Source: Candidatus Thorarchaeota archaeon (GTDB lineage: Archaea > Asgardarchaeota > Thorarchaeia > Thorarchaeales > Thorarchaeaceae). From it: 49,224 bases of DNA. Under the pieces are notes generated by a model. It worked only from the letters and a program-made list of their open reading frames with translations, was not told the origin of the DNA and did no database searches. Location of the stretch: assembly GCA_016839605.1 (NCBI GenBank), contig JAEOTX010000100.1, positions 1 through 49,224 of the forward strand. The letters run 5' to 3'. A program made the translations under genes and the position numbers. Shown piece after piece: positions 21,999 through 37,446 of the stretch. Within the stretch, counting starts at the first letter, position 1. Every line of letters begins with the position of its first letter.

Positions 21999-23759
21999 AT
22001 GTTAGACAGAGACAGTCTTGGTGAACTCTTCGGAAAGGTAGGCGTGGGCAATCAGACCATGCTGGGTATTATGGGAAACAACCGCGATGTGAGTGTTGGA
22101 GAGATATTCATGATATATTCTCAGAGAGACGGTCATGAAAGGGTCTTCTTCTTCAGAGTACTTGGATTGGAGAACTACCTAAGACAGGTCGATGATATGG
22201 CCCGAGTCGCTGGTACATTGATGGTCGAGGGCGATTCATATCTCTCAGGCATTGAAAGAAACATGCTGCTCTCTGTAGATGGAAGGATGCTAGGATATGC
22301 GGAGGAGACTGGAGAAGGATGGCGTTTCAGGTCTCCACGACGACTACCAGACCACTTAGCGAGCGTCTATCGCCCAATCCCAGGCACATCCGACAAGCCT
22401 GTTAGGGAGATGTTGAGTTCGCAGACAGATGGGAGTGTGCGTGTTGGCGATCTTCAGATTGGAGAGGCAACTCTTGATGTTCCAGTTATGATTCCTACGG
22501 ATAAATTGCCCATGCATGTGGGCATCTTTGGCTCCACAGGTTCAGGCAAGAGCAACCTGATGATGGTTCTTATCAAATCAATTATCGACTCCAACTTAGA
22601 TTATCTTCGTGAACATGACAGTGAACATCCACGAGTTTCAGCATTCTGCATAGATCCCCATGATGAGTTCGCCAGGGGTGTTGACAAGTATGGAATTCAG
22701 AGTGTGATTGAGGCAATGGATGCTACTACTAGGGCCGACGTAATCAAGGATTTCTATTATCTCACTACGCACAAGAGAGCCACGAAACGGGAGATCAAAC
22801 GATACACAAAGGAGATTCGTGTGCTATGGGAGGAGATTCGTCCTCGGGATCTCTATTCTATTATGGAGTTCACTCCACAGATGTATTCATTCATCGACTC
22901 ACAATTCAGCCGGCATCAAGAGGAATGGGTTGAGAAAATCCTGAATATGACGGAAGACGATACTCCCGAAGGAACGCCAAAAGGCACGCTGAAGGCGGTA
23001 CAACGTCGTCTTCGTTTCTTGGAGCGGTCTCCTATCTTCGTAGAGTCCGGCAGCTCAATCCTTGGCGAGATCTTCGAGGCAATGGAAACTGGACGCATCT
23101 TAGTCGTAAATACGAGTCTCATGAGTGATATGGAGCAATTCCTTCTCACGACAATAGTGACAAGAACTCTATCTGATATGAGACGTGCCCTCAAGAGTAG
23201 TGGAAACCTTGGTGACTTCGTTCGCCAAGGCGAAATGCGCCTTCCAAAGCCCTTCTTTGGAAAAGTGAAAGCACAAGCAAAGGCGTTCTATGGTAAGGGC
23301 GGAGTTGATGATGAGTCACCTGTACGTGATCCACGCGAACTTCCTGTGATTCTTGTTACAGTTGAAGAGGCTCCATCCATCCTCAATCCTGAGCTAATGC
23401 GCGGACAGTCAGTATTCAAGGACATATCCCGACAAGGGCGTAAGTTCAATATAGGTCTCCTCGTGGTAAGCCAGCAGGTCAGTGTACTAGACAACGTCAT
23501 CCTGAGTCAGATGAATACGGAGGTCAATCTCCGCTTGGGCAATGAACGTGAGATCCGCGCATGCATAGAGAATGCGAGTATCAACATATCTGGATTTGAG
23601 AACGAGTTCAGGGTGATGGCTCAAGGCGAAGGGATAGTCACAGCCTCATATCGAGAAATGCCATTGCCAGTTAAGATACCACTATTTGACACGGTGTTTG
23701 AACGAGATAAAGCAAGGTACAAAGCAAAGGGGCCTCCAAGAAAGGAACGCACACTCTGA
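21999..23759 (+). CDS. herA: HerA bipolar helicase/ATPase
   Basis: HAS-barrel-like N-term, HVGIFGSTGSGKS, IDPHDEF, VEEA, RQGRKF.IGL..VSQ, SQMNT. Confidence 0.9.
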   Translation: MLDRDSLGELFGKVGVGNQTMLGIMGNNRDVSVGEIFMIYSQRDGHERVFFFRVLGLENYLRQVDDMARVAGTLMVEGDSYLSGIERNMLLSVDGRMLGYAEETGEGWRFRSPRRLPDHLASVYRPIPGTSDKPVREMLSSQTDGSVRVGDLQIGEATLDVPVMIPTDKLPMHVGIFGSTGSGKSNLMMVLIKSIIDSNLDYLREHDSEHPRVSAFCIDPHDEFARGVDKYGIQSVIEAMDATTRADVIKDFYYLTTHKRATKREIKRYTKEIRVLWEEIRPRDLYSIMEFTPQMYSFIDSQFSRHQEEWVEKILNMTEDDTPEGTPKGTLKAVQRRLRFLERSPIFVESGSSILGEIFEAMETGRILVVNTSLMSDMEQFLLTTIVTRTLSDMRRALKSSGNLGDFVRQGEMRLPKPFFGKVKAQAKAFYGKGGVDDESPVRDPRELPVILVTVEEAPSILNPELMRGQSVFKDISRQGRKFNIGLLVVSQQVSVLDNVILSQMNTEVNLRLGNEREIRACIENASINISGFENEFRVMAQGEGIVTASYREMPLPVKIPLFDTVFERDKARYKAKGPPRKERTL

Positions 23760-23769
23760 GGAACGAAGT

Positions 23770-25077
23770 ATGACTGTACGCATTGCTCACATCTCCGATA
23801 CGCATCTCGGTTCTCGTCCACGACAGGGAGTCAAGCATAATGTCTGGGGTGAGGAGATGCGCAGCCGTCTTCTGGAGAATGACTTCTACGAACGGTTTGC
23901 TGAGCTGTTTGATAGAATTTCCGAAATGGACCCGCCAGTAGACCTAGTGATTCATTCAGGAGACCTCTACAATTCCCCATGGGAGAACAATCCCTCCCAG
24001 CCTCCTGTTGTCGCCCAGGAGACCGCAATGAGAGTCCTCAAAGATTTCATCGACAAGACAGGTATACCTGTTTTGATACTAGAGGGAAATCATGGTCTCT
24101 ATCGTTCACTTGATGTTTCTCTGCTTGACACACTCAAAATGGCTGTTGCAGGACTGGATGTCGCAACTCAAGTTGATCTGAAGCGCGCTTTCAGTGATAA
24201 CACACCTCTGATGTTCTCATATGACAAGCTGGATGTATTTTGCTTTCCATTCATGGACCACGCAGTCCTCACATCAACAGGCCTTGTCGGCGACTTCAAC
24301 GAATGGATTTCTACATCACAGTCTCCGAGTTCGTCGAAGGTGTCTGTAGGTGTTGCTCATGGCATGGATATAGACAGGTCGCTCCACACAGCTATCTTTG
24401 AGATGGGCTATGACTACATTGCATTGGGTCATGACCATCACTTACACAAGCACTCGAAAAACGCATGGTATGCGGGGTCTCCCGAAAGGTGGAGATTCGA
24501 TGAGATTCGTCATGAGAAGGGCTTCTTAATTGTGGATATGATATCGGGTGCGGCTCCGAAAGTCACACCGGTTCATCTGGAATTCGAAAGATCAATGTTC
24601 AATGAGAAGATCGCCATCGATCCTGATGACACTGAGTCAACGGTCATAGAGAAGGTTGAAGCCTGGTTAGAAGCTAATCGATTGAAAGGCCCATGGGAGC
24701 CTGCCTCTGCAAGTCGCATCAGGCTCAAATTGGAGGGCAAGGCACCTCGTGTCAGCGGCTTCGAGCTCACAATGGCCTTGGAAACTCTGCGAGCCAAGCT
24801 ACTAGCTGCTGAATCAGAATACAACATCGCACAGTTTGTCTGGGAGATTCGGCAAGCTGAAACAGATCATAGTCCCTCTGCATACCCCGAGATTGACTCT
24901 GAATTTCTAATTGAAGATCCTGAGGAGGATTTTCGAGCCTATTTGGAAACACTCGAAGTTGATGAGAAGTACAAAGAGGAAACTCTCACCAAGATTGCTG
25001 TTAAAGCGCTAAGAATCTCAGTGAGTCACAACGAAGAGACTCTTACATTGGAGAATCTATCGGAGGGTGAGGATTGA
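23770..25077 (+). CDS. mre11: Mre11/SbcD metallophosphoesterase nuclease
   Basis: HISDTHLG, HSGDLY, GNH, AHG, ALGHDH, YAGSPE motifs. Confidence 0.9.
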   Translation: MTVRIAHISDTHLGSRPRQGVKHNVWGEEMRSRLLENDFYERFAELFDRISEMDPPVDLVIHSGDLYNSPWENNPSQPPVVAQETAMRVLKDFIDKTGIPVLILEGNHGLYRSLDVSLLDTLKMAVAGLDVATQVDLKRAFSDNTPLMFSYDKLDVFCFPFMDHAVLTSTGLVGDFNEWISTSQSPSSSKVSVGVAHGMDIDRSLHTAIFEMGYDYIALGHDHHLHKHSKNAWYAGSPERWRFDEIRHEKGFLIVDMISGAAPKVTPVHLEFERSMFNEKIAIDPDDTESTVIEKVEAWLEANRLKGPWEPASASRIRLKLEGKAPRVSGFELTMALETLRAKLLAAESEYNIAQFVWEIRQAETDHSPSAYPEIDSEFLIEDPEEDFRAYLETLEVDEKYKEETLTKIAVKALRISVSHNEETLTLENLSEGED

Positions 25078-27152
25078 AGATCATACGCATGGAGATACAG
25101 AACTTCAAGCCTTTTCGGAAGCTTACTCTCCCTGAAACAGATGAGGAGTTGCCTAATGGGCTTATCATTGTTCGAGGCCCCAATTCAACAGGGAAATCCT
25201 CTATTTTCGAAGCCATTCTTTGGGCTCTATGGGGCCCCGTAGCTGTTGAGCCAACTAATGACGAGCTCATTAATTTCGCATCATCATTCTGTGAAGTAAG
25301 GCTCGAGTTTGATATTGCAGGCACTCGATATGAGATCAACCGCTCTTATGATTCTGCAAAGGGAATGATCGTAGTCCTTTCAGAAGAGAAGAAGGGCAAA
25401 TGGAAGAGAATTGCTGATAAGAGCCAGACCGTTAGTAGAAAGATGGAGGAGATTCTCCATCTAGAGCCTCAGCAAGCATTGCAGACTCTTCTTGTTCGGC
25501 AAGGAGAAGTCGCATTGATCGCAAATGCAACGCCGTCTGTCCTAAGAGACTTACTTGTCAAAGTCTACAACATAGAGCTACTTGGTGAGATGACTAAGCA
25601 GCTCGATAACTTGGAAAAGAATCTTAGTACCCAGATAGGCGTTAAACGAGAAGAATATCGACCTCCAGAATATATCCGTGAACAGATAACAACTACAAAA
25701 GAGCGAATCAGACAAGATGAAAAAGAGCTCAAGAAGGTGAAAGATGAGAGTGGAAAGGCTGAGAAGGACCTTGAAAACTTGCCCAATCCTAAGGACCTCA
25801 AGACAGCGAGTGAACTTCTTGAAAAGCTCAAAATGAAAGAGCAGGAACATAACAAGAGTGTCCGGAGTCGGGACAAAGAACAGCGGATGGCAGGAATAGT
25901 CGGCGCTGACTCAAGGATTATTGGCGCACGCTTAGATTCTCTCAAGAAAGAAAACGCTCGCTTGGAATCAGAAAAGGAAATTATCATACAGAAGTCCTTT
26001 GGGATTGAGAGGGATATTGGTACACATGAGGGCCTTGTGAGGGATATTGAAGACAAAACTGCGAAGCTGAACGATGACGATGCTCTATGCCCTACATGTC
26101 AAAAGCCGCTTTCAAATCATGACTGTGAACGATTGGTCACAGAATACAAGGAGCTTGCTGATAGTCATAAAACCAAGATAAGCGAATTAGAGCATGACCG
26201 AGATGCTGTTCCAGCGGAGGTCAAGGAGCTTGATGATCGCCTTAGAGCTATTCCTCGTGCGCTTGATGCAGCAACGCGTTTGGCTGAGCAACAGGAAGAA
26301 GTTGAGAAACTCGCCGCTGAGGTTGAGGCAATAGCGAAGAAATTGGGTTCAGTTCTTGAGAAGATGAATGTAGACAGCGTTGAAAAGCTGTTGAAGAAAC
26401 ACAAGGTCAAGGACATTGTTGATCTTCAGACCTACATTCGAACACTCAGTAAAACACTGATCTCGAATAAGACACACATTGAGTCTGCTGTTAAGAGGAT
26501 AGAGAAGGACAAGAGCCAGGTAAAGGACCTCGAAGAAACAGAAGTGAAGATGAAGGACCTGGGCGCCGAAATTGAATCCCTTGAGGAGCTTAAAGAGCAT
26601 ACGAGATATGTTCGACGAAAACTTGTAAGCGGCTTCATAGCAGATTATGTCTTTCAGAAGAGACTGATTGGTATAATCAGAAAAGCCACCAACCGCTATG
26701 TAGACGCGTTCACCAACGGTCAGTACACATCGATTGACCTCGAGCCGACTCCAGCAAAGGGACGTGCTGGTCCCGGCCTGCTTCTTAGAATCTGGGATGA
26801 GCGCGATAAGGCGAAGAAACGGACAGCCCAGCTGAGCTTCGGCGATCGAACAGCTATAAGCTTGGGTCTTCGCCTCGGAATTAGCCGAACCATGAGCAGC
26901 ATTCGACCTTTCAAGGACAGTCCGGCTATAGCACCGCGTGTCAGAAGCGTCCTTCTCGACGAGCCTCTTGGAGGATTAGACAGCGAACGAAGAACCTCAG
27001 TGGTCAAGAACCTAGTGGGCGATGAGAGCTTCGAGCAGATCTTTCTCATAACACACACTGATGTGAGGGGTTGGGAGGGTGTTCCAGTCATAGAAGTGAG
27101 CAAGAGCGGAAGTGCTAGTGATGCAGTTCTGGCCCTATCGCCTGACACCTGA
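25074..27152 (+). CDS. rad50: Rad50/SbcC SMC-like ATPase
   Basis: NFKPF, GPNSTGKSS, RQGE Q-loop, coiled coil with CPTC zinc hook, LSFGD signature, LLDEP, ITH; TTGA overlap with mre11. Confidence 0.9.
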   Translation: MKIIRMEIQNFKPFRKLTLPETDEELPNGLIIVRGPNSTGKSSIFEAILWALWGPVAVEPTNDELINFASSFCEVRLEFDIAGTRYEINRSYDSAKGMIVVLSEEKKGKWKRIADKSQTVSRKMEEILHLEPQQALQTLLVRQGEVALIANATPSVLRDLLVKVYNIELLGEMTKQLDNLEKNLSTQIGVKREEYRPPEYIREQITTTKERIRQDEKELKKVKDESGKAEKDLENLPNPKDLKTASELLEKLKMKEQEHNKSVRSRDKEQRMAGIVGADSRIIGARLDSLKKENARLESEKEIIIQKSFGIERDIGTHEGLVRDIEDKTAKLNDDDALCPTCQKPLSNHDCERLVTEYKELADSHKTKISELEHDRDAVPAEVKELDDRLRAIPRALDAATRLAEQQEEVEKLAAEVEAIAKKLGSVLEKMNVDSVEKLLKKHKVKDIVDLQTYIRTLSKTLISNKTHIESAVKRIEKDKSQVKDLEETEVKMKDLGAEIESLEELKEHTRYVRRKLVSGFIADYVFQKRLIGIIRKATNRYVDAFTNGQYTSIDLEPTPAKGRAGPGLLLRIWDERDKAKKRTAQLSFGDRTAISLGLRLGISRTMSSIRPFKDSPAIAPRVRSVLLDEPLGGLDSERRTSVVKNLVGDESFEQIFLITHTDVRGWEGVPVIEVSKSGSASDAVLALSPDT

Positions 27153-27210: not shown

Positions 27211-28863
27211 ATGGCTTTGAAAGACATCAGACGACGCATCCTGAGGTTCCTACTCGAGTATGGCATACTCATAGCTATCCTCACGGTTGGTCTCTATGTC
27301 TGGGTTTCAGTATTTCAGGCCGCGGTGGTGGATTACCTAGATTCAGATACCTGGATTTCTAGACATGTATGGCTCGGACCAGGTGTGAATCCAGGAGATT
27401 TCGATTTCTTTGGGATTACCCTCCACTATCAGTTCGAGGGGTACAGTGACTATTCCTTCTACTATGTCCATTGGGGACATAACATGCTCAATGGTGTCAT
27501 GCCCTACGATGGGGATTTTGGTTTCTTAGAGATTGACGGAATTACGAACCGGAATGGAGCATACATGTTTCCTCCCCTCACGGCATACCTATACGCCATT
27601 GGAATTCTGATCCCTGTTACTGAATGGGGAATTGGACTGCTATTGGCTGCATTCGGGTATCTGACTATTCTTCCAGTCTATGGTCTAGGGAAGGAGCTCT
27701 CAGGAAATAGGCATGTGGGTGAGGTAGCTGCATTCACCTACATCTTCGCCCCGAATGTCCTCTATCATACCACATTCCTTTGGATGAATCCCGCACCTTT
27801 CATTTTCTTCTTTTTCTCTGGGTTCTACATGCTTGTGGTAGGAAAACGGCACACAGGCACGCTCCTCATTGTGACTTCTGCTCTTTTCAAACAGACTGCA
27901 TGGTTTCTTGGAATCCCTCTTGTTATCTTTCTCCTACTGAAAGCGCGACCCCCGAAGACTGAAGAGAAAGAATCCTCTACTAATTCAACAGCGACGTCTG
28001 AAGGAAGTAAAGAGGCATCTGACGAAGATAAATCGAGACGTTTGGATAATGTGATCTCATTCATCAATGAATATGTAGACTATCGAGGATTTGCCTTTAG
28101 TGTGTTGCTGGTTCTGGGATTTGCTGGAGCCATAATGTTCCCATTTCTAGTAGCGCAACCAAACCTCTGGAACTTCCTTCGATTAGCTATGGGCGCATTT
28201 CCACTAGAGTCATTCACCGAGCTTCCTGGCTATGGTGGTCCTATTCGTCTACAGGTGCTCCTTGTTGTTGCAGGACTTCCGACTCTTGCAGAAATCGTGG
28301 ATGTCTTCGTCTATTCCGGCGGACTTCTGATTTTGGGAGTCCTGGTCTTTTGGGGTGTCATGATGATTGAGCCTAAGTATAAGGGCCAAAGACGAGTTTT
28401 TCTACGTCGTCTTCTATTTTTCACACTGCTCATGATGCTATGGGTGAATATAGCTGGACCCAGAGGAGTCTTCAAGTACTATTTCACGTTGTTTGCTCCT
28501 TTCTTCTCAATCTTTTCTTCAACAACAATGTGCACGAGTATGGAAGAGAACGTGAAGTTCTCCACATCTATGATTTGGCTGCCGTTCTTGTTCAGCCTTA
28601 TGATTCTCATTCCTTCTCGAAACATATATCTCGCCTATGTCATAGTCATTTTCGTTGGATATCTGCTGTCAAAGAAGGTGGGTTGGACGTGGTATGCTGC
28701 CACCTATCCAATTCGTTTTGTCAAGAGGAGGCTTTCTCCTCGACTCGGTTCCCATAAGGCACGACTAGGTCTTCGTAAACAGAGGATTCTTGACTACGCC
28801 TATGCAGTTCCGGAGGCATCAGCTCCTAATAATCAGGGCAATGTGGCGAAGGCAGAGGTATAG
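27211..28863 (+). CDS. GT-C superfamily membrane glycosyltransferase (GT87/PIG-M-like)
   Basis: Polytopic TM protein; extracellular SD...Y....G.MPY and Y.FPPL motifs; LFKQ. Confidence 0.72.
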   Translation: MALKDIRRRILRFLLEYGILIAILTVGLYVWVSVFQAAVVDYLDSDTWISRHVWLGPGVNPGDFDFFGITLHYQFEGYSDYSFYYVHWGHNMLNGVMPYDGDFGFLEIDGITNRNGAYMFPPLTAYLYAIGILIPVTEWGIGLLLAAFGYLTILPVYGLGKELSGNRHVGEVAAFTYIFAPNVLYHTTFLWMNPAPFIFFFFSGFYMLVVGKRHTGTLLIVTSALFKQTAWFLGIPLVIFLLLKARPPKTEEKESSTNSTATSEGSKEASDEDKSRRLDNVISFINEYVDYRGFAFSVLLVLGFAGAIMFPFLVAQPNLWNFLRLAMGAFPLESFTELPGYGGPIRLQVLLVVAGLPTLAEIVDVFVYSGGLLILGVLVFWGVMMIEPKYKGQRRVFLRRLLFFTLLMMLWVNIAGPRGVFKYYFTLFAPFFSIFSSTTMCTSMEENVKFSTSMIWLPFLFSLMILIPSRNIYLAYVIVIFVGYLLSKKVGWTWYAATYPIRFVKRRLSPRLGSHKARLGLRKQRILDYAYAVPEASAPNNQGNVAKAEV

Positions 28864-28866
28864 ACA

Positions 28867-30363
28867 ATGGATGTTCCGAATGTAACACGGAGTGCTCTTG
28901 TAGCAAATCTCAAGAAACATCGCTTGTTCATCATTGTACTTCTATTAGCTGCAATAGTCTGGACATGGGTGTTTATTCAGTCGGCAATAGATTTCGTAAC
29001 TAGCACAAGTTGGCCTAGAGCTGTCTGGAACGGTTATGGGTCCATCAATCTTTTCGGCTTCCCCATTAGATTCGCATACGAGGGCTGGGCTGATCATGAC
29101 TATTTCTATCACAGCTGGGCCAATCAGTTTCTTAGTGGTCTTCTGCCGTATACGCCAGAATTTGACCTCTTATTTCAGAATGAAGCTTACTATAATGTAC
29201 CATACTTCTTCCCGCCTCTCTATCTCTATGCTTGCGTCATTGGCAAGTTGCTTCATTCAGACCTAGGCATAGGTCTAGTTCTCACTGTATTTGGTTTCAT
29301 TACAGCGTTCCCAATCTACGGCATTTCCACCTATCTCTCTGGGAATAGAAATGTGGGAGCCGTTGCAGCTGCAACCTATTTATTCAGCCCCATAATACTC
29401 TATCATACCGTCTTCGAGTGGTTGAACCCTGCTCCGTTTGTCTTTTTCTCAATGCTCTCCTTCTACCTTCTAATGCACAACCGAAGACTCTCCGGAGTTC
29501 TCGCTATGACAACAGCCGCTCTTTTCAAGCAGACCGCCTTCTTCTTTGCTCTACCCCTAATTGCATTCGTATTGAAACGCGCCCCGCAGCCTATTTCCGA
29601 CGAAGAAACACCCCCAGAAGAAGAGGAACAAAATAAGCGGCCGGCGAGTGATGAACTAGATTTGAAAGGATTCGCGAAAATAGCACTTGTTGTATGTGGA
29701 TATGCCGCTGTCCTCTCTTTGCCTTACATTCTGGACCCTTTCAACTATGGAAATGCGATTTTCTCAAGAGCAGGCGGGACCTATCTGACCGATCTGACAT
29801 CGCCGCCACCCATCAGCTTTCCTATAACCCTCGCTGTTCTCTTCATCATGATTGGTGCTCCTGAATGGGTTTCTGAACTTGTCAATCTGACGACTTTTTA
29901 CTCAATAGGAATTATCATTGCTATTGTTCCGCTATTAGCTTTGATGCTGCTGGAGGTGAAGAAAGACCAGGATCTTCAGGCATACTGGCGGAGAATCATT
30001 TTCTTGACTTTGCTCTTGATGCTCTGCGTCCACATATTATCGCCACGTGGAATTTACAAATACTACACTGTTGCACTAGTACCATTCTTCTCAATTCTAT
30101 CAACATCTAGTCTCTGCCAGAGGACCTCTGAAAACGTTCGTGTATCTTTTCCCATGCTACTTGTTCCGATGGTTTGCAGTTTCGCAATAATGATTCCTGC
30201 AAGAACTACCTACCTGCTTTACCTAATCTTGATACTTGCTGGATATATTCTGCATAAAGCATTCTCATATACATATGAATTGGGAGCAGGACCAGCCAGA
30301 AAATTAGGCCAGCGGCTGATGGCCTCGGTACGTGGAGATTCGTCGCTGAAGGTTACTGAATGA
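28867..30363 (+). CDS. GT-C superfamily membrane glycosyltransferase, tandem paralog
   Basis: ADHDYFY..W....G.LPY, YFFPPL, LSGNR.VG, LNPAPF, LFKQTA, PRGIYKYY shared with upstream gene. Confidence 0.72.
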   Translation: MDVPNVTRSALVANLKKHRLFIIVLLLAAIVWTWVFIQSAIDFVTSTSWPRAVWNGYGSINLFGFPIRFAYEGWADHDYFYHSWANQFLSGLLPYTPEFDLLFQNEAYYNVPYFFPPLYLYACVIGKLLHSDLGIGLVLTVFGFITAFPIYGISTYLSGNRNVGAVAAATYLFSPIILYHTVFEWLNPAPFVFFSMLSFYLLMHNRRLSGVLAMTTAALFKQTAFFFALPLIAFVLKRAPQPISDEETPPEEEEQNKRPASDELDLKGFAKIALVVCGYAAVLSLPYILDPFNYGNAIFSRAGGTYLTDLTSPPPISFPITLAVLFIMIGAPEWVSELVNLTTFYSIGIIIAIVPLLALMLLEVKKDQDLQAYWRRIIFLTLLLMLCVHILSPRGIYKYYTVALVPFFSILSTSSLCQRTSENVRVSFPMLLVPMVCSFAIMIPARTTYLLYLILILAGYILHKAFSYTYELGAGPARKLGQRLMASVRGDSSLKVTE

Positions 30364-31525
30364 GCTTCTCCAGCTCTTTCTTCTTCTTCTCCAGATTCTT
30401 ATTCAGCGTCTTCAGACGTGTATCTAGCTTCTCAACTTGCTCAGTGTAGGTGTCTTTAGGCATCGCACCGGACGAGTGTCTTTCTTCAATGTGGTCCCGC
30501 AGCTGTTGGACCGACTTGATCTCTTTCTCCAATGCCTTTGCGTCTGCTTCAATTTCTGCTGCCTGATTTTCTTCATCAGTCTGGAATTGCCTTGATGGAA
30601 TCATGACGCCAAGCTGTGACTGTGTTTTTTCTGCAAAGTCCTGAAATTGATCACGAAGCATCTCAATGTTTTTGTCCACGTTGGCTAACTTCTTGTCCAA
30701 TTTGCCGATGTCTTTCTGTAGGTCGAAAACAGCATTGACTAGTCTACGCATTGTCTTCTCCATCTCGGCGCTAGCTTCTACAGAAGCCTTTAGCTGTTTC
30801 TTTTCTTCCTTCTTCTCTTGGTCCTTTACAACCTCACTTGGCTTAGCAGTCCTTATCTCTCCGCTCAGCCATTTGATGGCATTTACTGCGAACGCTTGGT
30901 TGCCCTTATGCTTCATTCCCCCGCCTTTGCGAAATACCTCGTAGCTACCAACACAGAGTACACGTCCCTTGCCTGCCTCTGCAATCGCAATAACTGGCTT
31001 ATTCGGTGGGTCTGCCGTGTCTGATGTACTCGCTATTGTTGTTGCCTTAGTGGTCACATTGAGAGTACACCCAGAAGGAACAAGTATGTCTTGTACATCC
31101 TCCGTGACGGGATGAACTACCACGTTGGTGATGATAGGCATTGTCGGAAGGCCTGCATTGTTTCTCTCGTCTCGTACAGCTGTGTTCTCGAAGCTAATTC
31201 CAAAACCTTTCGACACTTGGCTCAAGTTATTCATCAGACCACGGTCTCCCCCCGACAGTGAGAGCAGCATCAGACCGCCTCCTTTCTTTACGTATCGCTT
31301 CAGAATATCAATCTCAGCTGGTCGCAGTTTTGAGCTGTTAGGACAACCGAAAACTATGGCATCTGCCCTTTCCAGATTCTTTGCGAGTATCATGTACTCA
31401 GTGTAGGGCTCGACATCGAAGTCATTGTCCTGCAAAATCTTAGCGAGTTGCGAATATGTCGTGTCGAGTCGGCCACGTTCATTTTGGGTCTGGTCAAAGA
31501 GAATGAGCTTCCTTCTTCCGCTCAA
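30353..31525 (-). CDS. GIFT (GldG/IFT52) domain protein with C-terminal coiled coil
   Basis: ILFDQTQNE, IVFGCP...AEIDILKRYV..GG.LMLL..GG, P.GCTL.V, PVIA...GRV...GS..VF, N....N.IKWL; TTG start at 31525 after GGGGGA. Confidence 0.75.
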   Translation of the reverse strand: MSGRRKLILFDQTQNERGRLDTTYSQLAKILQDNDFDVEPYTEYMILAKNLERADAIVFGCPNSSKLRPAEIDILKRYVKKGGGLMLLSLSGGDRGLMNNLSQVSKGFGISFENTAVRDERNNAGLPTMPIITNVVVHPVTEDVQDILVPSGCTLNVTTKATTIASTSDTADPPNKPVIAIAEAGKGRVLCVGSYEVFRKGGGMKHKGNQAFAVNAIKWLSGEIRTAKPSEVVKDQEKKEEKKQLKASVEASAEMEKTMRRLVNAVFDLQKDIGKLDKKLANVDKNIEMLRDQFQDFAEKTQSQLGVMIPSRQFQTDEENQAAEIEADAKALEKEIKSVQQLRDHIEERHSSGAMPKDTYTEQVEKLDTRLKTLNKNLEKKKKELEKLIQ

Positions 31526-31676
31526 TGGTATATCCCCCTGTCTAGAGGTAGTAGGATGAGATGGTGAAAGAGAACTAATGAGAGTTGTGTAGGTGTTATC
31601 CATATGCCTTCTATCTTACGGAAGACTGAAAACTCACTCACGAATACAGCTGGAAAAAAGAGTTGGAGGTTTCAAT

Positions 31677-32123
31677 ATGTCAGATGAATGTTTGTTCTGT
31701 AAAATTGCCAATGGTGAGGTCCCTTCTTCATTAGTCTTTGAGGATGACATTTCGATGGCCTTCATGGATATATTCCCGATCAACAGAGGTCATTGTCTCC
31801 TAATCCCTAAGAAGCACTATGTCAACCTCCTTGACATAGACCTTGACTTGCTCGGCGTAATGAGCAAACGGCTAGCAGTCCTTACACGGAAGGTGTTCAA
31901 CAGCCTAGAACCTGCAGGCATTCTGAATGCTATTACTAATGGCGAGGGTGCTGGTCAGGAAGTCTTCCACTTGCACTTTCATATAATACCTCGTGAGCCG
32001 GATGATGCGTTCGTAACAAGGATGATGCCGGGTACCCGCGGTGAAATGGCCCCGCGAGAAGAGCTCGATAAGTTGGCGCAGCTAATCAGCGAGGCTGACC
32101 CGCAAATTACCGATATTACTTGA
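31677..32123 (+). CDS. HIT family (Hint-like) nucleotide hydrolase
   Basis: CLFCKI, AFMDIFP...GH.L.IPK.H, GQEVFHLHFHIIPR; GGAGGT before ATG 31677. Confidence 0.92.
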   Translation: MSDECLFCKIANGEVPSSLVFEDDISMAFMDIFPINRGHCLLIPKKHYVNLLDIDLDLLGVMSKRLAVLTRKVFNSLEPAGILNAITNGEGAGQEVFHLHFHIIPREPDDAFVTRMMPGTRGEMAPREELDKLAQLISEADPQITDIT

Positions 32124-32644: not shown

Positions 32645-35446
32645 GTGGAACTGGTGAAAGACAAGAGGCCTACTGATGACCAACAGGCATCGCTCGAGGA
32701 CTTCTTTGGATCTGATGAAGAAGAAGAGCCAGAGATAGTAGAACCTCCGCAAGAAGTACCACCCGAATCTTCTTCCAATGAACAATCGATTGATGAGAAC
32801 GAATCAACTGAAAATGACTCAGATGTAGATGATGAAGAGATACCGCCTGATGACACTGAGGAAATGGTCACTGAAATCCAGGTAGGTGAGAGAGAGACTC
32901 CTTCAAACTTGCCGCCCTCCTATCTTCTTTCTGTAGACTATGCTGGCGCTCAGAGAAAGGCATTTGCTCGTTTGTATAATCCAAACGACAAGAAGATCTA
33001 CTTCTGGTTTGATAACACTGGTCACAAGCCTTACTGCTATACCGACTATCCTCCTGATGTAGCAGAAACGAAGATTGGCCGTCATCGAGGATTCGTCCGT
33101 TCCGAACGTGTGGAACTCACTGATCTTTTACGTGATGAGCCTGTGAAGATGACGAAGATCATTGCCAGCGACCCTCTCTCCATTGGCGGTTCTGCTGGAG
33201 CAATTAGGGAACGGCTTGTAGATCGCTCTGGCGCAACAAATGTGAGCCATGCATGGGAAGCGAATATTCGCTATCGCAACTGCTACACATATGATACGAA
33301 TATTGTTTCGGGCTTGCCATACAAGATTGAGGATGGCAATCTTATCCCAAGTGCTCCCAAACTGGACAAGAAGATGCTTGATGAATTCAAGAGCACGTTC
33401 GAAGCCGATGAAGACCTCGAAAAGATAATCACAGAGTATGCCCCGATGTTCTTCACCGAAGTGCCCGACATTCGACGGATAGCTCTGGACATTGAAGTAT
33501 ATACGCCAGTAAAGAATAGAATACCTGATGCACGGACGGCTCCTTATCAGGTAACGGCGATTGGACTTTCAGATAACGAAGGATACAACAAGTGCTTCGT
33601 ATTGAAGAGACCAGAGATTAAGGAAGGCAAGAAAGGGGCAGATTATCCGAAAGAAATGGAACTCGTATATTTTGAAGACGAGAAGGCTATGCTGATTGAA
33701 GCTTTCAGAATAATTGATGCCTATCCCATCGTTCTCACCTTCGTGGGTGATGCTTTTGACTTGCAGTATCTACATAACCGTGCTGAAAAACTGGGAGTCA
33801 ACATGAATCGCCATTGCCCAATCTATCTAGCCAGAGACCTGGCACTCCTGCAGAGAGGAATTCATGTCGATCTCTATCGTTTTCTGAAGAATCCATCAAT
33901 CCGCCTCTATGCACTCTCCGGAGCCTACGAGCAGTTCAACCTGGAGTCTATTGCCAAGGGGCTCTTGGGTGTTGGCAAGCTCGACTTGAGTGACGATATT
34001 TCAGCTCTCAACTACTTCGAATTGGCTCATTATTGCTGGCGAGATGCAAATCTGACGCTTCGACTTACTACCTTTGATGACAATCTCCTTCTTCGCCTTA
34101 TCGTTCTCTTGATGCGTGTATCTAGATTATCAATGGAGGATGTCACTAGGCTATACATCTCTTCGTGGATTCAGTCATTGTTTAGGCAAGAGCATCGTTC
34201 TCAGAAATATATCATACCACGCAGAATTGATATTGATAGCAGCAAGTCTGTTGAAGCTCAGACTGAAGCAATGATCAAGGACAAGAGCTTCAAAGGAGCC
34301 ATTGTGATTGACCCTGTCGCAGGAGTCCACTTCAAAGCCACCGTGCTTGACTTTGCAAGCCTGTACCCGACCATAATGAAACAACACAATATCAGCTACG
34401 AAACCATTGACTGCCCTCACGAGTCATGTCAAATGGATCCTGACAATCGTGTACCCGAAACAGATCATTGGGTCTGTACTGAACGGAAAGGAATGATTAG
34501 CCAGACAATAGGCTTCTTCAGAGATACACGAGTAAAATGGTTCAAACCTAAAAGCAAGGACAAGGCTCTTGATGAACAGACACAGGAATGGTATGGAGTA
34601 GTCGAGAAAGCACTCAAGGTCTTTGTCAATGCAGCATACGGGGTCACTGGCGCTCAGCATTTCGAGCTCTTCTGTATGCCAGCGGCAGAGAGCGTTACTG
34701 CGTACGGTCGCAACGCGATTATCAAGACCAAGGAAAAGGCTGAGGAGATGGGTGTTCGTGTTCTTTATGGGGATACTGATTCAGTCTTCCTAGATAATCC
34801 AAGCGAAGAGCAACAGAAGGAGCTAGTTCGTTGGTCAACCGAGGAATTAGGTATTGACCTTGAAGTTGAGAAGACATACAAATATGTCGCACTATCGGAT
34901 AGAAAGAAGAACTACATTGGAGTCTATGAGTCTGGATACGTTGAAGTAAAAGGCCTGAGTGGAAAGAAGAGAAACACTCCTGACTTTGTCCAAGATGCAT
35001 TCCGAGAGATGCTTGATGTATTGAGCAAGGTGGACACTGTAGAGGGCTTTGAGGCTGCGAAAGAGGAGATTCGAGAGATCGTCAACTCTGTCATAGATCG
35101 TCTTGAAGGCAAAGCCGAGGCCTACACTCCTGAAGAGCTGGCTTTCAGAGTCCAGATTACGAAACGGATTGGAGATTATGGGCTGTCCAAACCACAACAT
35201 GTTCGTGCTGCAGAGATGCTGCAGAAAGCTGGCTATGATGTCCCACCAGGAACAATCGTGGAATACATCAAGATCAAAGGTGGAGATGGCCTCCTTCCAG
35301 TTCAGATGGCCGGAGAGAAGAGCTATTGGCTCGACAAGGACAAATACCTCGACACACTGCGCTCAGTTTTTGGACAGGTTCTGGACTCGGTCGGAATCAA
35401 TTTTGAGGAATTATTAGGTTTTACAACCCTTGACCAGTTCTTCTGA
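32645..35446 (+). CDS. polB: Family B DNA polymerase (PolB1-type) with acidic N-terminal extension
   Basis: GHKPY, WEANI, DIEV (ExoI), FDL.YL, DFASLYP, K...NAAYG, YGDTDS, KKNY; no intein apparent. Confidence 0.95.
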   Translation: MELVKDKRPTDDQQASLEDFFGSDEEEEPEIVEPPQEVPPESSSNEQSIDENESTENDSDVDDEEIPPDDTEEMVTEIQVGERETPSNLPPSYLLSVDYAGAQRKAFARLYNPNDKKIYFWFDNTGHKPYCYTDYPPDVAETKIGRHRGFVRSERVELTDLLRDEPVKMTKIIASDPLSIGGSAGAIRERLVDRSGATNVSHAWEANIRYRNCYTYDTNIVSGLPYKIEDGNLIPSAPKLDKKMLDEFKSTFEADEDLEKIITEYAPMFFTEVPDIRRIALDIEVYTPVKNRIPDARTAPYQVTAIGLSDNEGYNKCFVLKRPEIKEGKKGADYPKEMELVYFEDEKAMLIEAFRIIDAYPIVLTFVGDAFDLQYLHNRAEKLGVNMNRHCPIYLARDLALLQRGIHVDLYRFLKNPSIRLYALSGAYEQFNLESIAKGLLGVGKLDLSDDISALNYFELAHYCWRDANLTLRLTTFDDNLLLRLIVLLMRVSRLSMEDVTRLYISSWIQSLFRQEHRSQKYIIPRRIDIDSSKSVEAQTEAMIKDKSFKGAIVIDPVAGVHFKATVLDFASLYPTIMKQHNISYETIDCPHESCQMDPDNRVPETDHWVCTERKGMISQTIGFFRDTRVKWFKPKSKDKALDEQTQEWYGVVEKALKVFVNAAYGVTGAQHFELFCMPAAESVTAYGRNAIIKTKEKAEEMGVRVLYGDTDSVFLDNPSEEQQKELVRWSTEELGIDLEVEKTYKYVALSDRKKNYIGVYESGYVEVKGLSGKKRNTPDFVQDAFREMLDVLSKVDTVEGFEAAKEEIREIVNSVIDRLEGKAEAYTPEELAFRVQITKRIGDYGLSKPQHVRAAEMLQKAGYDVPPGTIVEYIKIKGGDGLLPVQMAGEKSYWLDKDKYLDTLRSVFGQVLDSVGINFEELLGFTTLDQFF

Positions 35447-35551: not shown

Positions 35552-36583
35552 ATGTCAAACTTCAGGGAATTCTTCATGCAGAAACTCCTCATCCTATTGA
35601 GGCCAACTGACCTTGACATGCCTGCGAAGGACTTTATTTCTACTTACGCCTCTTACATGGAATCTATCGGCATAGTTGGCAAAGGCCCAACTGGTCATGT
35701 TATCTACCCAAGTAGAACAGCTCCGGTCGATGCAGAATATACCCAGCTCTTCGAGGACCTCGTAGGCTTGACGAGTGCCCTGGATATTCATACTGTAGCT
35801 AGCATGGACTTCTATACAGACGCATGGTTCGCCAAGGATCCAAAGTATCACACTGTATCTCCAAGAGGAGAACCGATGCCTCACCAGATCTGTCCCAACA
35901 GAGAAGAGTTCTGGCAGTATGGTGCAGAAATAGTTGGTGAGCTCGCTGCCTATCCAATTGATGAAATCTTGCTCTTTGGTGCTGGTTTTATTCGTGATCA
36001 CTTCTGCTTTTGTGAACGTTGCAGGAATGATTTTGCACCATTGGTAGACCAAGAACCCAATCGGCTCACGTACGAGTACATAATCGAAAATCCTGACCAT
36101 CATGCTAAGTGGCATGAATGGCGTTCAGGCAAAGTGAGCGAGGGTCTGAAGTATTTACAGGCATCTGCACGGGATGCAGATGAAAAAGTCGGTCGAGAGA
36201 ACCCACTCAGCATCTCTGTTGAGGTGCTATTAGATCCCGAAACAGGCTTTTCTGAAGGGGGCAAGGGCCAGTATGGATATGACTATTCCAGTATCCTCGA
36301 AATCACTGGCAATGTCATGATTAACATGTATCCCTGGAGTCCAATCCTCCCATCAAAGGGTTCGAGTGAATACGACGAATTAATTGAGTCACTATATTAT
36401 ACGAGCGAGTTCCAGCGTCGAGGTGGCACAGCGTCACTCTTCCGCTGGGGTGTGACTACAATAGACCAACTACGTGAGCTAAAAGCTATCGGTAAGGACG
36501 CCAACATTGACCGAATCGTGACAACTTTCAGTTATCCAAGTGATTATTCAACTCGTCGTGAGAGTGCAATTGGTAACTACTAG
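35552..36583 (+). CDS. Glycoside-hydrolase-like TIM barrel (GHL10/GH42-N-like) with CxCxxC motif
   Basis: IYPS, ICPN..E, Y.ID.I.L, CFCERCRNDF, W.EWR patterns; no signal peptide. Confidence 0.55.
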   Translation: MSNFREFFMQKLLILLRPTDLDMPAKDFISTYASYMESIGIVGKGPTGHVIYPSRTAPVDAEYTQLFEDLVGLTSALDIHTVASMDFYTDAWFAKDPKYHTVSPRGEPMPHQICPNREEFWQYGAEIVGELAAYPIDEILLFGAGFIRDHFCFCERCRNDFAPLVDQEPNRLTYEYIIENPDHHAKWHEWRSGKVSEGLKYLQASARDADEKVGRENPLSISVEVLLDPETGFSEGGKGQYGYDYSSILEITGNVMINMYPWSPILPSKGSSEYDELIESLYYTSEFQRRGGTASLFRWGVTTIDQLRELKAIGKDANIDRIVTTFSYPSDYSTRRESAIGNY

Positions 36584-36591
36584 ACCTGCTT

Positions 36592-37446
36592 TTATTGAGG
36601 TACGCCACACCATGGACACACCTTGGTGCCAGCTCTAAATGTTCTGCCGCAAGAGAAACAAAACGTTCTATCTTCTCGGCTATCTGAACTCTCACTGAAT
36701 GGACTGAGTTCTCCCTGAGCAAACAAGGAACCAACACCTTCTGCATCGCCTGAACGAATACTACATGTTGAGCCAGTTGCCCCTTCCCCTTCTCCGAATA
36801 GATTGCTCAGGTCTGCATAGGAGTCGGATCTTTCGGGCTCTCCAAAGGATGAGGCTGTTTCTATAGGTGTGGATGCTTCATGACGTCCCCACGGACTTGG
36901 GTCACGCTCAGGATAACTTCTCGGTTGCAAGCTTCGATCTAGTGAATCGAAATCTTTGCGGTAATCATCTCCACCATACCCTCTATCAACAGCGGGTTGG
37001 TTTGCTAGGGACGAACCATAGCTATCATACTCACCTCGAGAGCCTCTGTCTGCGTAGCCCCTCGCGGATTCGATGAACCTGATGTGCGCATCACCCTTCA
37101 AACGCTCATATTCGTCTGGTGTTAGACCCAGCATTTCCAGCGCACGATCTCTCTCAGCGCATCTTTTTGACATTGGACAACAGAAAGAAAGGCTTGCGTG
37201 GCAAAGTGATGCCATCGCTCTGTCTTGTCGAGACTTAAAGATAGGAGTTATTCGGCGTCTACCAAGGACAAGTGAATCGCCACTTGAACGAAGTTCTGCG
37301 TAACCACTCTGAGCAAGTGCCTCCACTATCTCCCTCGCTGGATATGCCCTCCCTTCAATCACTATATGTCCTTCAGTCTTATCTAATCGTACAGGACGTT
37401 CCACGTCTCTGTCATCTTCACGGCTTGGGTATCTCGTGATAGCCAC
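36592..37446 (-). CDS. Hypothetical protein with Cys cluster (methanogenesis-marker-9-like repeat), disordered linker and C-terminal zinc ribbon
   Basis: CHASLSFCCPMSKRC..RD.AL..LGLT.DEY..LK; C-term CFSCG......CPWCG. Confidence 0.6.
   Translation of the reverse strand: MAITRYPSREDDRDVERPVRLDKTEGHIVIEGRAYPAREIVEALAQSGYAELRSSGDSLVLGRRRITPIFKSRQDRAMASLCHASLSFCCPMSKRCAERDRALEMLGLTPDEYERLKGDAHIRFIESARGYADRGSRGEYDSYGSSLANQPAVDRGYGGDDYRKDFDSLDRSLQPRSYPERDPSPWGRHEASTPIETASSFGEPERSDSYADLSNLFGEGEGATGSTCSIRSGDAEGVGSLFAQGELSPFSESSDSREDRTFCFSCGRTFRAGTKVCPWCGVPQ

Follow-up and report, generated by a model that had tools for sequence, protein, structure and literature searches.

We analysed a stretch of 49,224 nucleotides from a Candidatus Thorarchaeota archaeon (contig JAEOTX010000100.1 of assembly GCA_016839605.1, hereafter the window), focusing on a minus-strand gene that encodes a protein with a GIFT domain at its N-terminus, i.e., the domain that also opens IFT52, a core subunit of intraflagellar transport (IFT). 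This GIFT-coiled-coil gene spans positions 30353-31525, from a TTG codon at 31525 to a stop codon at 30353-30355, and encodes 390 residues. It lies within a longer open reading frame (30353-31603, 416 residues) that has an upstream ATG at 31603. Judging from the sequence, the TTG is very probably the real start. We took the shorter length because the TTG coincides with a MSGRRK peptide that starts 10 of the 13 aligned homologues, because a Shine-Dalgarno-like motif (GGGGGA, 31533-31538, minus strand) stands 7 nt upstream of it, and because the 26-residue extension further upstream is not conserved in the alignment of homologues. The best 120 homologues, all from Thorarchaeota (64-98% identity), mostly have 383-396 residues. 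An original prediction, made from the DNA letters alone, had placed an IFT52-like GIFT domain at 30860-31525, which corresponds to residues 27-248 of the longer frame, i.e., to exactly the GIFT domain.

The GIFT domain (30860-31525, residues 1-222 of 390) is followed on the minus strand by a charged linker predicted to be disordered (30776-30859, residues 223-250), a long predicted helix of 55 residues (30611-30775, residues 251-305), a conserved loop of sequence QLGVMIPxRQF (30578-30610, residues 306-316), and a C-terminal helical hairpin resembling SHOCT and GvpG (30356-30577, residues 317-390). The GIFT domain was assigned from Pfam, the PDB, an AlphaFold2 (AF2) model, Foldseek and VIA-align, the helix and the loop from the alignment and the AF2 model, and the hairpin from this model and an alignment of 24 tails. 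The predicted local distance difference test (pLDDT) exceeded 94 over residues 1-222 and was 89-96 in the hairpin, but dropped below 50 at residues 227-234 and 241-253; the predicted template-modelling score (pTM) was 0.60, and the C-terminal 140 residues were modelled as helical. We found no signal peptide or transmembrane segment in 19-residue Kyte-Doolittle windows, whose maximum mean was 0.99, and no hydrophobic stretch at the N-terminus. As far as the sequence tells, the protein is soluble and cytoplasmic, in agreement with the original prediction. A scan of the protein against NCBIfam gave nothing beyond coiled-coil noise, e.g., SMC and Rad50. Upstream, a divergent intergenic region (31526-31676) separates the gene from a HIT gene that probably starts with the ATG at 31677.

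The head of the protein is truly homologous to the N-terminal domain of IFT52 (IFT52-N). It matched the Pfam profile IFT52_GIFT (PF23355) with an E-value of 4e-19 (69.1 bits for a cut-off of 27.2), and so did all 14 aligned Thorarchaeota members. In the same scan, DUF4350 (25.7 bits vs. 30.4), ABC_transp_aux (23.1 bits vs. 34.7) and ThuA remained below their cut-offs, GATase1_like reached 13.9 bits only, and OST48_N was not matched. The profiles PF23355, PF14258, PF09822 and PF03345 make up what we take to be the GIFT superfamily group of Pfam. Among PDB sequences, phmmer ranked Chlamydomonas IFT52 (CrIFT52) on top (5fmr_A, 1.8e-11, 47 bits). The other matches included 8bd7_B and the mouse protein (5fms), the E-values ranged from 1.8e-11 to 4e-7, and only IFT52 was meaningful. 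The conserved IFT52 motifs that the original prediction had listed reappeared in this alignment. A profile built from 62 family members matched IFT52 with a much better E-value (1.7e-30), over residues 8-261 of CrIFT52.

The structural comparisons gave the same picture. The AF2 model of the head has the three-layer alpha/beta fold of the class-I glutamine-amidotransferase-like (GATase-like) proteins, as was also found with Foldseek and VIA-align. A Foldseek comparison with IFT52-N had been proposed along with the original prediction, and the mouse and Chlamydomonas IFT52-N were indeed its first matches (E-value 3e-20, template-modelling (TM) score 0.87-0.91, root-mean-square deviation (rmsd) 2.0-2.3 Å); OST48/Wbp1 followed at about 1e-10, ahead of GH42 and ThuA-like domains, and GATases share the fold. 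The VIA-align 2 Z-scores were 30.4 for mouse IFT52-N, 22.8 for CrIFT52, 20.9 for OST48 and at most 19 for the others, and the superposition on mouse IFT52-N had an rmsd of 2.0 Å over 218 residues with 22-26% identity. Going by the model, the closest solved structure is IFT52-N, by a wide margin over OST48. The latter (OST48/DDOST/Wbp1; 6S7O chain G and 6EZN chain G, Z 20.9 and 17.9) has the GIFT fold in common with the Asgard protein, but is lumenal, has a C-terminal transmembrane anchor, and is not detected by the profile of the Asgard family. A GIFT domain resembling IFT52-N at 30860-31525 is thus borne out by Pfam, by the top PDB matches and by the fold.

The family occurs in nearly all Asgard archaea. 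An exhaustive search of 1.84 billion representatives clustered at 50% identity yielded 974 relatives with E<1e-3; 62 clusters were below 1e-30, and the best 150, which were the ones listed, all looked prokaryotic. The top relatives (around 70) are proteins of 330-570 residues with an N-terminal GIFT domain, a charged helical tail, and no hydrophobic segment; those with a named source come from Thor-, Hel-, Loki- and Promethearchaeota. Of 301 genomes drawn evenly from the phylum, 276 (in 68 of 70 genera) had a PF23355 score above the cut-off, often more than one, whereas the 14 control genomes had none. An orthologue is carried by 73 species-level Thorarchaeota genomes. When 118 GIFT domains were placed in a tree, the protein fell within an all-cytoplasmic clade of 69 clusters with an SH-aLRT (approximate likelihood ratio test) support of 90, and the secreted or anchored GIFT domains were mostly placed outside this clade. 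A further GIFT protein of the same genome (contig C101, L003:1309-2418, plus strand) is an extracellular paralogue with an OST48-like topology: it has a signal peptide, then the GIFT domain, and a transmembrane anchor at the C-terminus.

Prokaryotic GIFT proteins have reportedly been known since 2004, when Beatson and Ponting are said to have described the superfamily. They include DUF4350 (PF14258), GldG/ABC_transp_aux (PF09822) and DUF7408, are usually secreted or membrane-anchored, and have in common with the Asgard family the motifs HP(I/V)T...GC(S/T)L and GGxLLLL...GG. Proteins of this secreted or anchored type, from Bathyarchaeota and Zixibacteria, are found among the relatives at E-values of 1e-13 to 1e-25. 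The Asgard protein belongs to the same superfamily, but it remains below the cut-offs of the DUF4350 and GldG profiles, is unanchored, carries a tail of its own, and falls in the separate all-cytoplasmic clade.

A best match to IFT52_GIFT is no evidence of a relationship to IFT52, because secreted bacterial and archaeal GIFT proteins score as well or better. The profile gave 102 bits on a surface-anchored protein of 1130 residues (P0224), 75 bits on a secreted protein of 820 residues (P0197), and 55-68 bits on proteins of the Bathyarchaeota and Zixibacteria type; in the Atlas it tags 95-97% of the members of Thermoplasmatota and Bacteroidota clusters. The secreted P0197 scored 52.9 bits against CrIFT52, compared with 47 for the Thorarchaeota protein, and at least 150 representative clusters outscore IFT52 against the domain studied here (66 bits at the cut-off vs. 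47 bits). We then searched group profiles against the same PDB set, and compared their scores on the Chlamydomonas chains 5fmr and 8bd7 and on mouse IFT52. The cytoplasmic Asgard family (A2, 62 sequences) scored 109.5, 108.3 and 88.6 bits respectively, a second cytoplasmic group (A4, 19 sequences) 80.4, 78.7 and 66.3, and a secreted or membrane-anchored group (A5, 15 sequences) 105.2, 103.1 and 93.5. No special closeness to IFT52 is apparent, since these prokaryotic profiles score 110, 80 and 105 bits on CrIFT52. The sole asymmetry is that the secreted profile weakly detects OST48 and the site-1 protease, whereas the cytoplasmic Asgard profile does not.

Past the GIFT domain, IFT52 continues with an extended segment that binds IFT88, a Pro-rich segment that passes through IFT70, and a domain that heterodimerises with IFT46 (PMC9753473). 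We detected no similarity to full-length CrIFT52 (8bd7_B, 454 residues) outside residues 8-261. The IFT88-binding segment and the Pro-rich segment threaded through IFT70 (residues 271-370 of the Chlamydomonas protein) had no counterpart in the alignment of the family profile, which also revealed no similarity to the IFT46-pairing domain; a SHOCT-like hairpin stands there instead. The C-terminal extension noted in the original prediction is indeed helical in the AF2 model, but its likeness to IFT52 did not hold, with no match past IFT52 residue 261. On the head itself, K130 and R204 of IFT52 belong to a conserved surface patch that binds IFT57/38 of IFT-B2 (PMC4818760). The column of R204 holds Lys in the Thorarchaeota protein and N, K, S, R, V or A across the family, and K130 falls in an unaligned stretch. 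In the genome, which is 80% complete, IFT46_B_C and IFT81_CH had no match, and both profiles were also silent in all control genomes. IFT57 gave a coiled-coil match of 16.6 bits, below its cut-off and also seen in six control genomes; IFT88 and IFT70 were not searched.

We read the protein as a domain-level relative of IFT52, and not as its orthologue; nothing in the data shows an archaeal IFT machine. The two proteins (IFT52, also OSM-6 or BLD1, is part of the IFT-B1 core; 5FMR, 5FMS and 8BD7 chain B) share the GIFT fold and its Gly, Pro, Asn and Phe core motifs. Both are cytosolic, have around 400-450 residues, and carry the GIFT domain at the extreme N-terminus. The Asgard protein differs in having a coiled coil and a SHOCT-like hairpin in the place of the parts that bind IFT88, IFT70 and IFT46, in having invariant Asp, His and Cys residues of which several are replaced in IFT52, and in belonging to an organism without a cilium. 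The original prediction, which saw in it a candidate archaeal relative of the IFT-B scaffold, therefore stands for the homology of the domain and for its archaeal and cytoplasmic nature, and is unsupported for the special closeness and for the IFT52-like tail. The scores of the secreted or anchored profile (105, 103 and 94 bits vs. 110, 108 and 89 for the Asgard family) show no IFT52-specific relationship, and the searches for IFT46, IFT81 and IFT57 found no IFT-B partner in the 80%-complete genome.

These data bear on the possibility that IFT52 has its direct archaeal precursor, or its sister, in the cytoplasmic Asgard family. Eukaryotes would then have inherited the protein vertically, and the extensions that bind IFT88, IFT70 and IFT46 would have been added later. 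The location in the cytosol and the N-terminal position of the GIFT domain are common to both proteins, IFT52 is the best solved match (Z 30.4 vs. 20.9 for OST48), and the family profile finds IFT52 and no OST48, while that of the secreted group finds OST48. The family was plausibly present in the archaeal ancestor of eukaryotes, because it is found in nearly all Asgard lineages. On the other side stand the equally good matches of secreted and anchored GIFT groups to IFT52, the clusters that outscore it, the confinement of the likeness to the GIFT domain, the lack of IFT46 and IFT81 matches in this incomplete genome (by profiles also silent in controls), the unconserved counterpart of R204, and K130 in an unaligned stretch. 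Vertical descent of IFT52 from this family, argued from sequence comparisons, is conceivable but doubtful in our view.

Accounts of how intraflagellar transport arose usually start from coatomer-like proteins. To our knowledge, they leave IFT52, the scaffold of the IFT-B core, without a prokaryotic source. An obvious candidate for such a source, which can now be named and tested, is a soluble family that begins with a GIFT domain and occurs in almost all Asgard archaea. If the ancestry were true, IFT52 would be the first core IFT-B subunit with an identified archaeal precursor. The IFT-B backbone would then have been built by adding extensions that bind IFT46 and tetratricopeptide-repeat proteins to an Asgard scaffold that already existed, and that was perhaps a partner of replication or repair enzymes. 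GIFT domains, their prokaryotic members and the Pfam tagging of these proteins are already known. Our literature search found no description of the cytoplasmic Asgard family or of its relationship to IFT52, and Makarova 2024 does not mention it.

The tail of the protein has two parts with different conservation. The 55-residue helix is strongly conserved within Thorarchaeota only (RRLVNAVFDLQKDI...LRDQFQDFAEKTQ), and the other Asgard classes have low-complexity linkers in its place. The hairpin is found family-wide: 24 tails from distant clades could be aligned without gaps, and show the motif S..L...(I/V)..(K/R)(H/Y/F)..G.(I/M/L)....Y..Q..KL. We searched the tails of nine family members with Pfam, and all matches to GvpG, SHOCT and CdvA were below the thresholds. 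GvpG was matched in five of the nine (best E-value 3e-5; 24.5 bits for a cut-off of 30.6), SHOCT in three (best 3e-3, i.e., 0.0033; 17.6 bits for a cut-off of 27), and CdvA also in three (best 6e-3). When a profile of the tails was searched against the PDB, the best match was 8whn_A (4.9e-5), in which both hairpins were matched. This structure, the cytosolic four-helix bundle of OST1 from a Lokiarchaeal organism (MK-D1), pulls down ribosomes (PMC11417166). The tail pattern aromatic-x-x-G-x-hydrophobic-x4-Y...L matches the hairpins of this OST1/ribophorin I bundle (8WHN) and resembles SHOCT (PF09851) and GvpG (PF05120) below their thresholds; the Asgard GIFT protein has one hairpin where 8WHN has two, and the scores are weak for a helical, charge-rich sequence. 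The likeness to SHOCT and GvpG is seen at the level of the sequence motif only, and we read the hairpin as a putative generic SHOCT-like module for bundling or docking.

Similar hairpins are found in other proteins of this genome. A cation/proton-antiporter-like membrane protein (contig C248, L041:1477-3099, minus strand) ends in two tandem, cytosolic hairpin motifs of the tail type, with the pattern aromatic-x-x-G-x-(M/L)-x4-Y and a layout that resembles the two-hairpin bundle of 8WHN. A protein of 185 residues (contig C179, L040:1048-1605, plus strand) consists of a coiled coil, a linker rich in Pro, Ala and Glu, and then the hairpin motif at its C-terminus. The gene that precedes it (L040:1-912, plus strand) encodes a small GTPase whose N-terminus is extended by about 140 residues.

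The arrangement of head, stalk and hairpin resembles that of Vps23 and Vps37, and could suggest an alternative adaptor of the type of ESCRT-I (endosomal sorting complex required for transport I), in which the hairpin would act as a steadiness box and insert the GIFT head into the ESCRT-I headpiece, which the window encodes at a distance of 13 kb. Chains of the yeast Vps28 N-domain did appear in the PDB search with the tail profile, with E-values of 0.15-0.25 only, CdvA was matched below threshold in the three tails mentioned above, and by eye the hairpin motif is like that of the Vps28N-Vps22 fusion of the window. Yet, neither Vps23_core nor Mod_r matched any of the nine tails at E≤10, and hhalign comparisons with the two steadiness-box proteins of the window gave probabilities of 0.03% and 0.4%. 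Furthermore, the best solved match of the tail is the cytosolic tail of OST1 and not ESCRT-I, the same motif occurs on the antiporter tail, and ESCRT genes never adjoin the GIFT gene in 35 loci. We consider an ESCRT-I role very improbable.

We favour, with a probability of roughly 60%, the reading of the protein as a soluble scaffold or adaptor unrelated to IFT, from a pan-Asgard family in which a GIFT head is joined by a flexible or helical stalk to a C-terminal hairpin. By analogy with IFT52, whose GIFT domain is a docking site for IFT88 and IFT57/38 and not an enzyme (PMC4818760, PMC9753473), the head would be a binding platform. Binding may involve a pocket surrounded by D11, D94, N100, D119, H138, C153 and Y195, the residues that are invariant in the family alignment. 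By analogy with the paired hairpins of OST1, the stalk and the hairpin would oligomerise or dock through helical bundles.

The same seven polar residues could also be those of an enzyme or of a protein that binds a sugar or nucleotide-sugar, with a GIFT pocket that was lost in IFT52. When aligned with IFT52, D11 is replaced by Ser, D119 by Arg, C153 by Ala and Y195 by Cys; the change of D94 to Glu is conservative, N100 is kept, and H138 is unaligned. Such a function would fit the HP(I/V)T...GC(S/T)L motif shared with the other prokaryotic GIFT groups and the occurrence of the same fold in ThuA, the GH42 domain, GATases and OST48. The canonical Cys-His-Glu triad arrangement of GATases is not evident, as the conserved H138 and C153 stand in another order, and IFT52-N is neither a sugar binder nor an enzyme (PMC4818760). 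The partner in this case would be a neighbouring sugar-nucleotidyltransferase in Loki-type genomes or the GT-C proteins in Thorarchaeia.

We compared 35 loci from 17 GTDB families (labelled f1, f2, etc., where f1 is Thorarchaeia). The order was the same in all seven Thorarchaeia loci: family-B DNA polymerase (PolB), PCC and HIT on one side of the GIFT gene, and on the other two GT-C membrane proteins, Rad50, Mre11 and HerA (PolB - PCC - HIT > GIFT < GT-C - GT-C - Rad50 - Mre11 - HerA). The sister family f2 kept the right half of this order, from the membrane proteins to HerA. PolB was directly divergent from the GIFT gene in the three loci of f7, and both loci of f19 had the order PolB - PCC > GIFT. 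In the window, PolB, the repair genes and the membrane proteins are on the plus strand. PolB, linked to the GIFT gene in f1, f7 and f19, is at 32645-35446. HerA, Mre11 and Rad50 (21999-27152) form a complete set for double-strand break repair, where the HerA and Mre11 frames as listed overlap by about 70 bp. Two tandem paralogous membrane proteins with a GT-C fold (27211-30363), conserved in f1 and f2, are convergent with the GIFT gene, with which the nearer one has an 11-bp 3' overlap (30353-30363).

In other families, an ATP-dependent DNA ligase adjoins the GIFT gene (f4, f5, f10, f14, f18 and f27), mostly in the same direction and with a gap of 18 nt at locus L015. The coordinates from two phylum-wide searches placed the two genes next to each other in 2/2 cases in f4, 6/8 in f5, 1/1 in f18, and 1/1 in f10. 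In the Loki-type families f9 (4/4) and f24 (2/2), a GPN-loop GTPase and a sugar-nucleotidyltransferase are upstream and co-directional. We also considered one operon partner conserved throughout the phylum, and rejected it because the gene context differs by family. Replication and repair genes are the commonest theme among the neighbours, and the family stands out as an abundant and strongly conserved Asgard protein that is encoded, in many lineages, beside PolB or the replicative ligase. The PolB and HerA-Mre11-Rad50 neighbourhood in Thorarchaeia, together with the adjoining ligase in six families, leads us to propose that the protein is an accessory factor of DNA replication or repair, although only as a tentative guess.

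The sugar-related alternative draws on the NTP_transferase/LbH gene directly upstream in f9 and f24 and on the GT-C fold of the Thorarchaeia neighbours. The AF2 model of the membrane neighbour (pLDDT 80, pTM 0.83) was matched by Foldseek to GT-C glycosyltransferases, best to PIG-U of the glycosylphosphatidylinositol (GPI) transamidase (E-value 2e-5, TM score 0.54/0.63) and then to ALG6, PIG-M, AglB and ALG3. The GIFT and GT-C genes converge, and the active sites of GT-C proteins face the outside of the cell, whereas the GIFT protein is cytosolic. An enzymatic or sugar-binding function seems unlikely on this balance, and a link to sugars or glycosylation in general is about as unlikely or slightly more so.

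Several of these observations nonetheless weigh against the scaffold and its proposed role. The gene context is not uniform between families, the GT-C-fold membrane proteins are the nearest convergent neighbours in Thorarchaeia, and the co-directional genes of f9 and f24 point elsewhere; a link to glycosylation or sugar nucleotides is about as defensible, because of these f9/f24 genes and the GT-C neighbours. The PolB and Rad50 genes are divergent from or convergent with the GIFT gene, and not co-transcribed with it. The invariant Asp, His and Cys could mean an enzyme instead of a scaffold, and the proposed oligomerisation of the tail comes from a weak sequence match and a model of the monomer.

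A few neighbours deserve mention in their own right. The two membrane proteins of the window (27211-28863, 550 residues; 28867-30363, 498 residues) had no sequence match in Pfam, NCBIfam or the PDB. The f9 and f24 genes (L025:5882-9395, L034:6829-9529, and others) encode a GTPase of the ATP_bind_1 family and an NTP_transferase/LbH protein similar to GMPPB and eIF2B-epsilon. Two genes without an assigned family travel with PolB, one (35552-36583, plus strand) in f1, f7 and f19, the other (36592-37446, minus strand) in f1 and f7. The product of the latter has a C-terminal zinc ribbon and a weak segment similar to methanogenesis marker 9 (9e-6, far below the cut-off). Finally, in f7 and f19, a protein of about 190 residues matching ARPC4, the subunit 4 of Arp2/3 (30.5 bits for a cut-off of 22.2; L028:6790-7362, plus strand), is encoded by a convergent gene directly downstream of the GIFT gene, with equivalents at L012, L013, L023 and L036.

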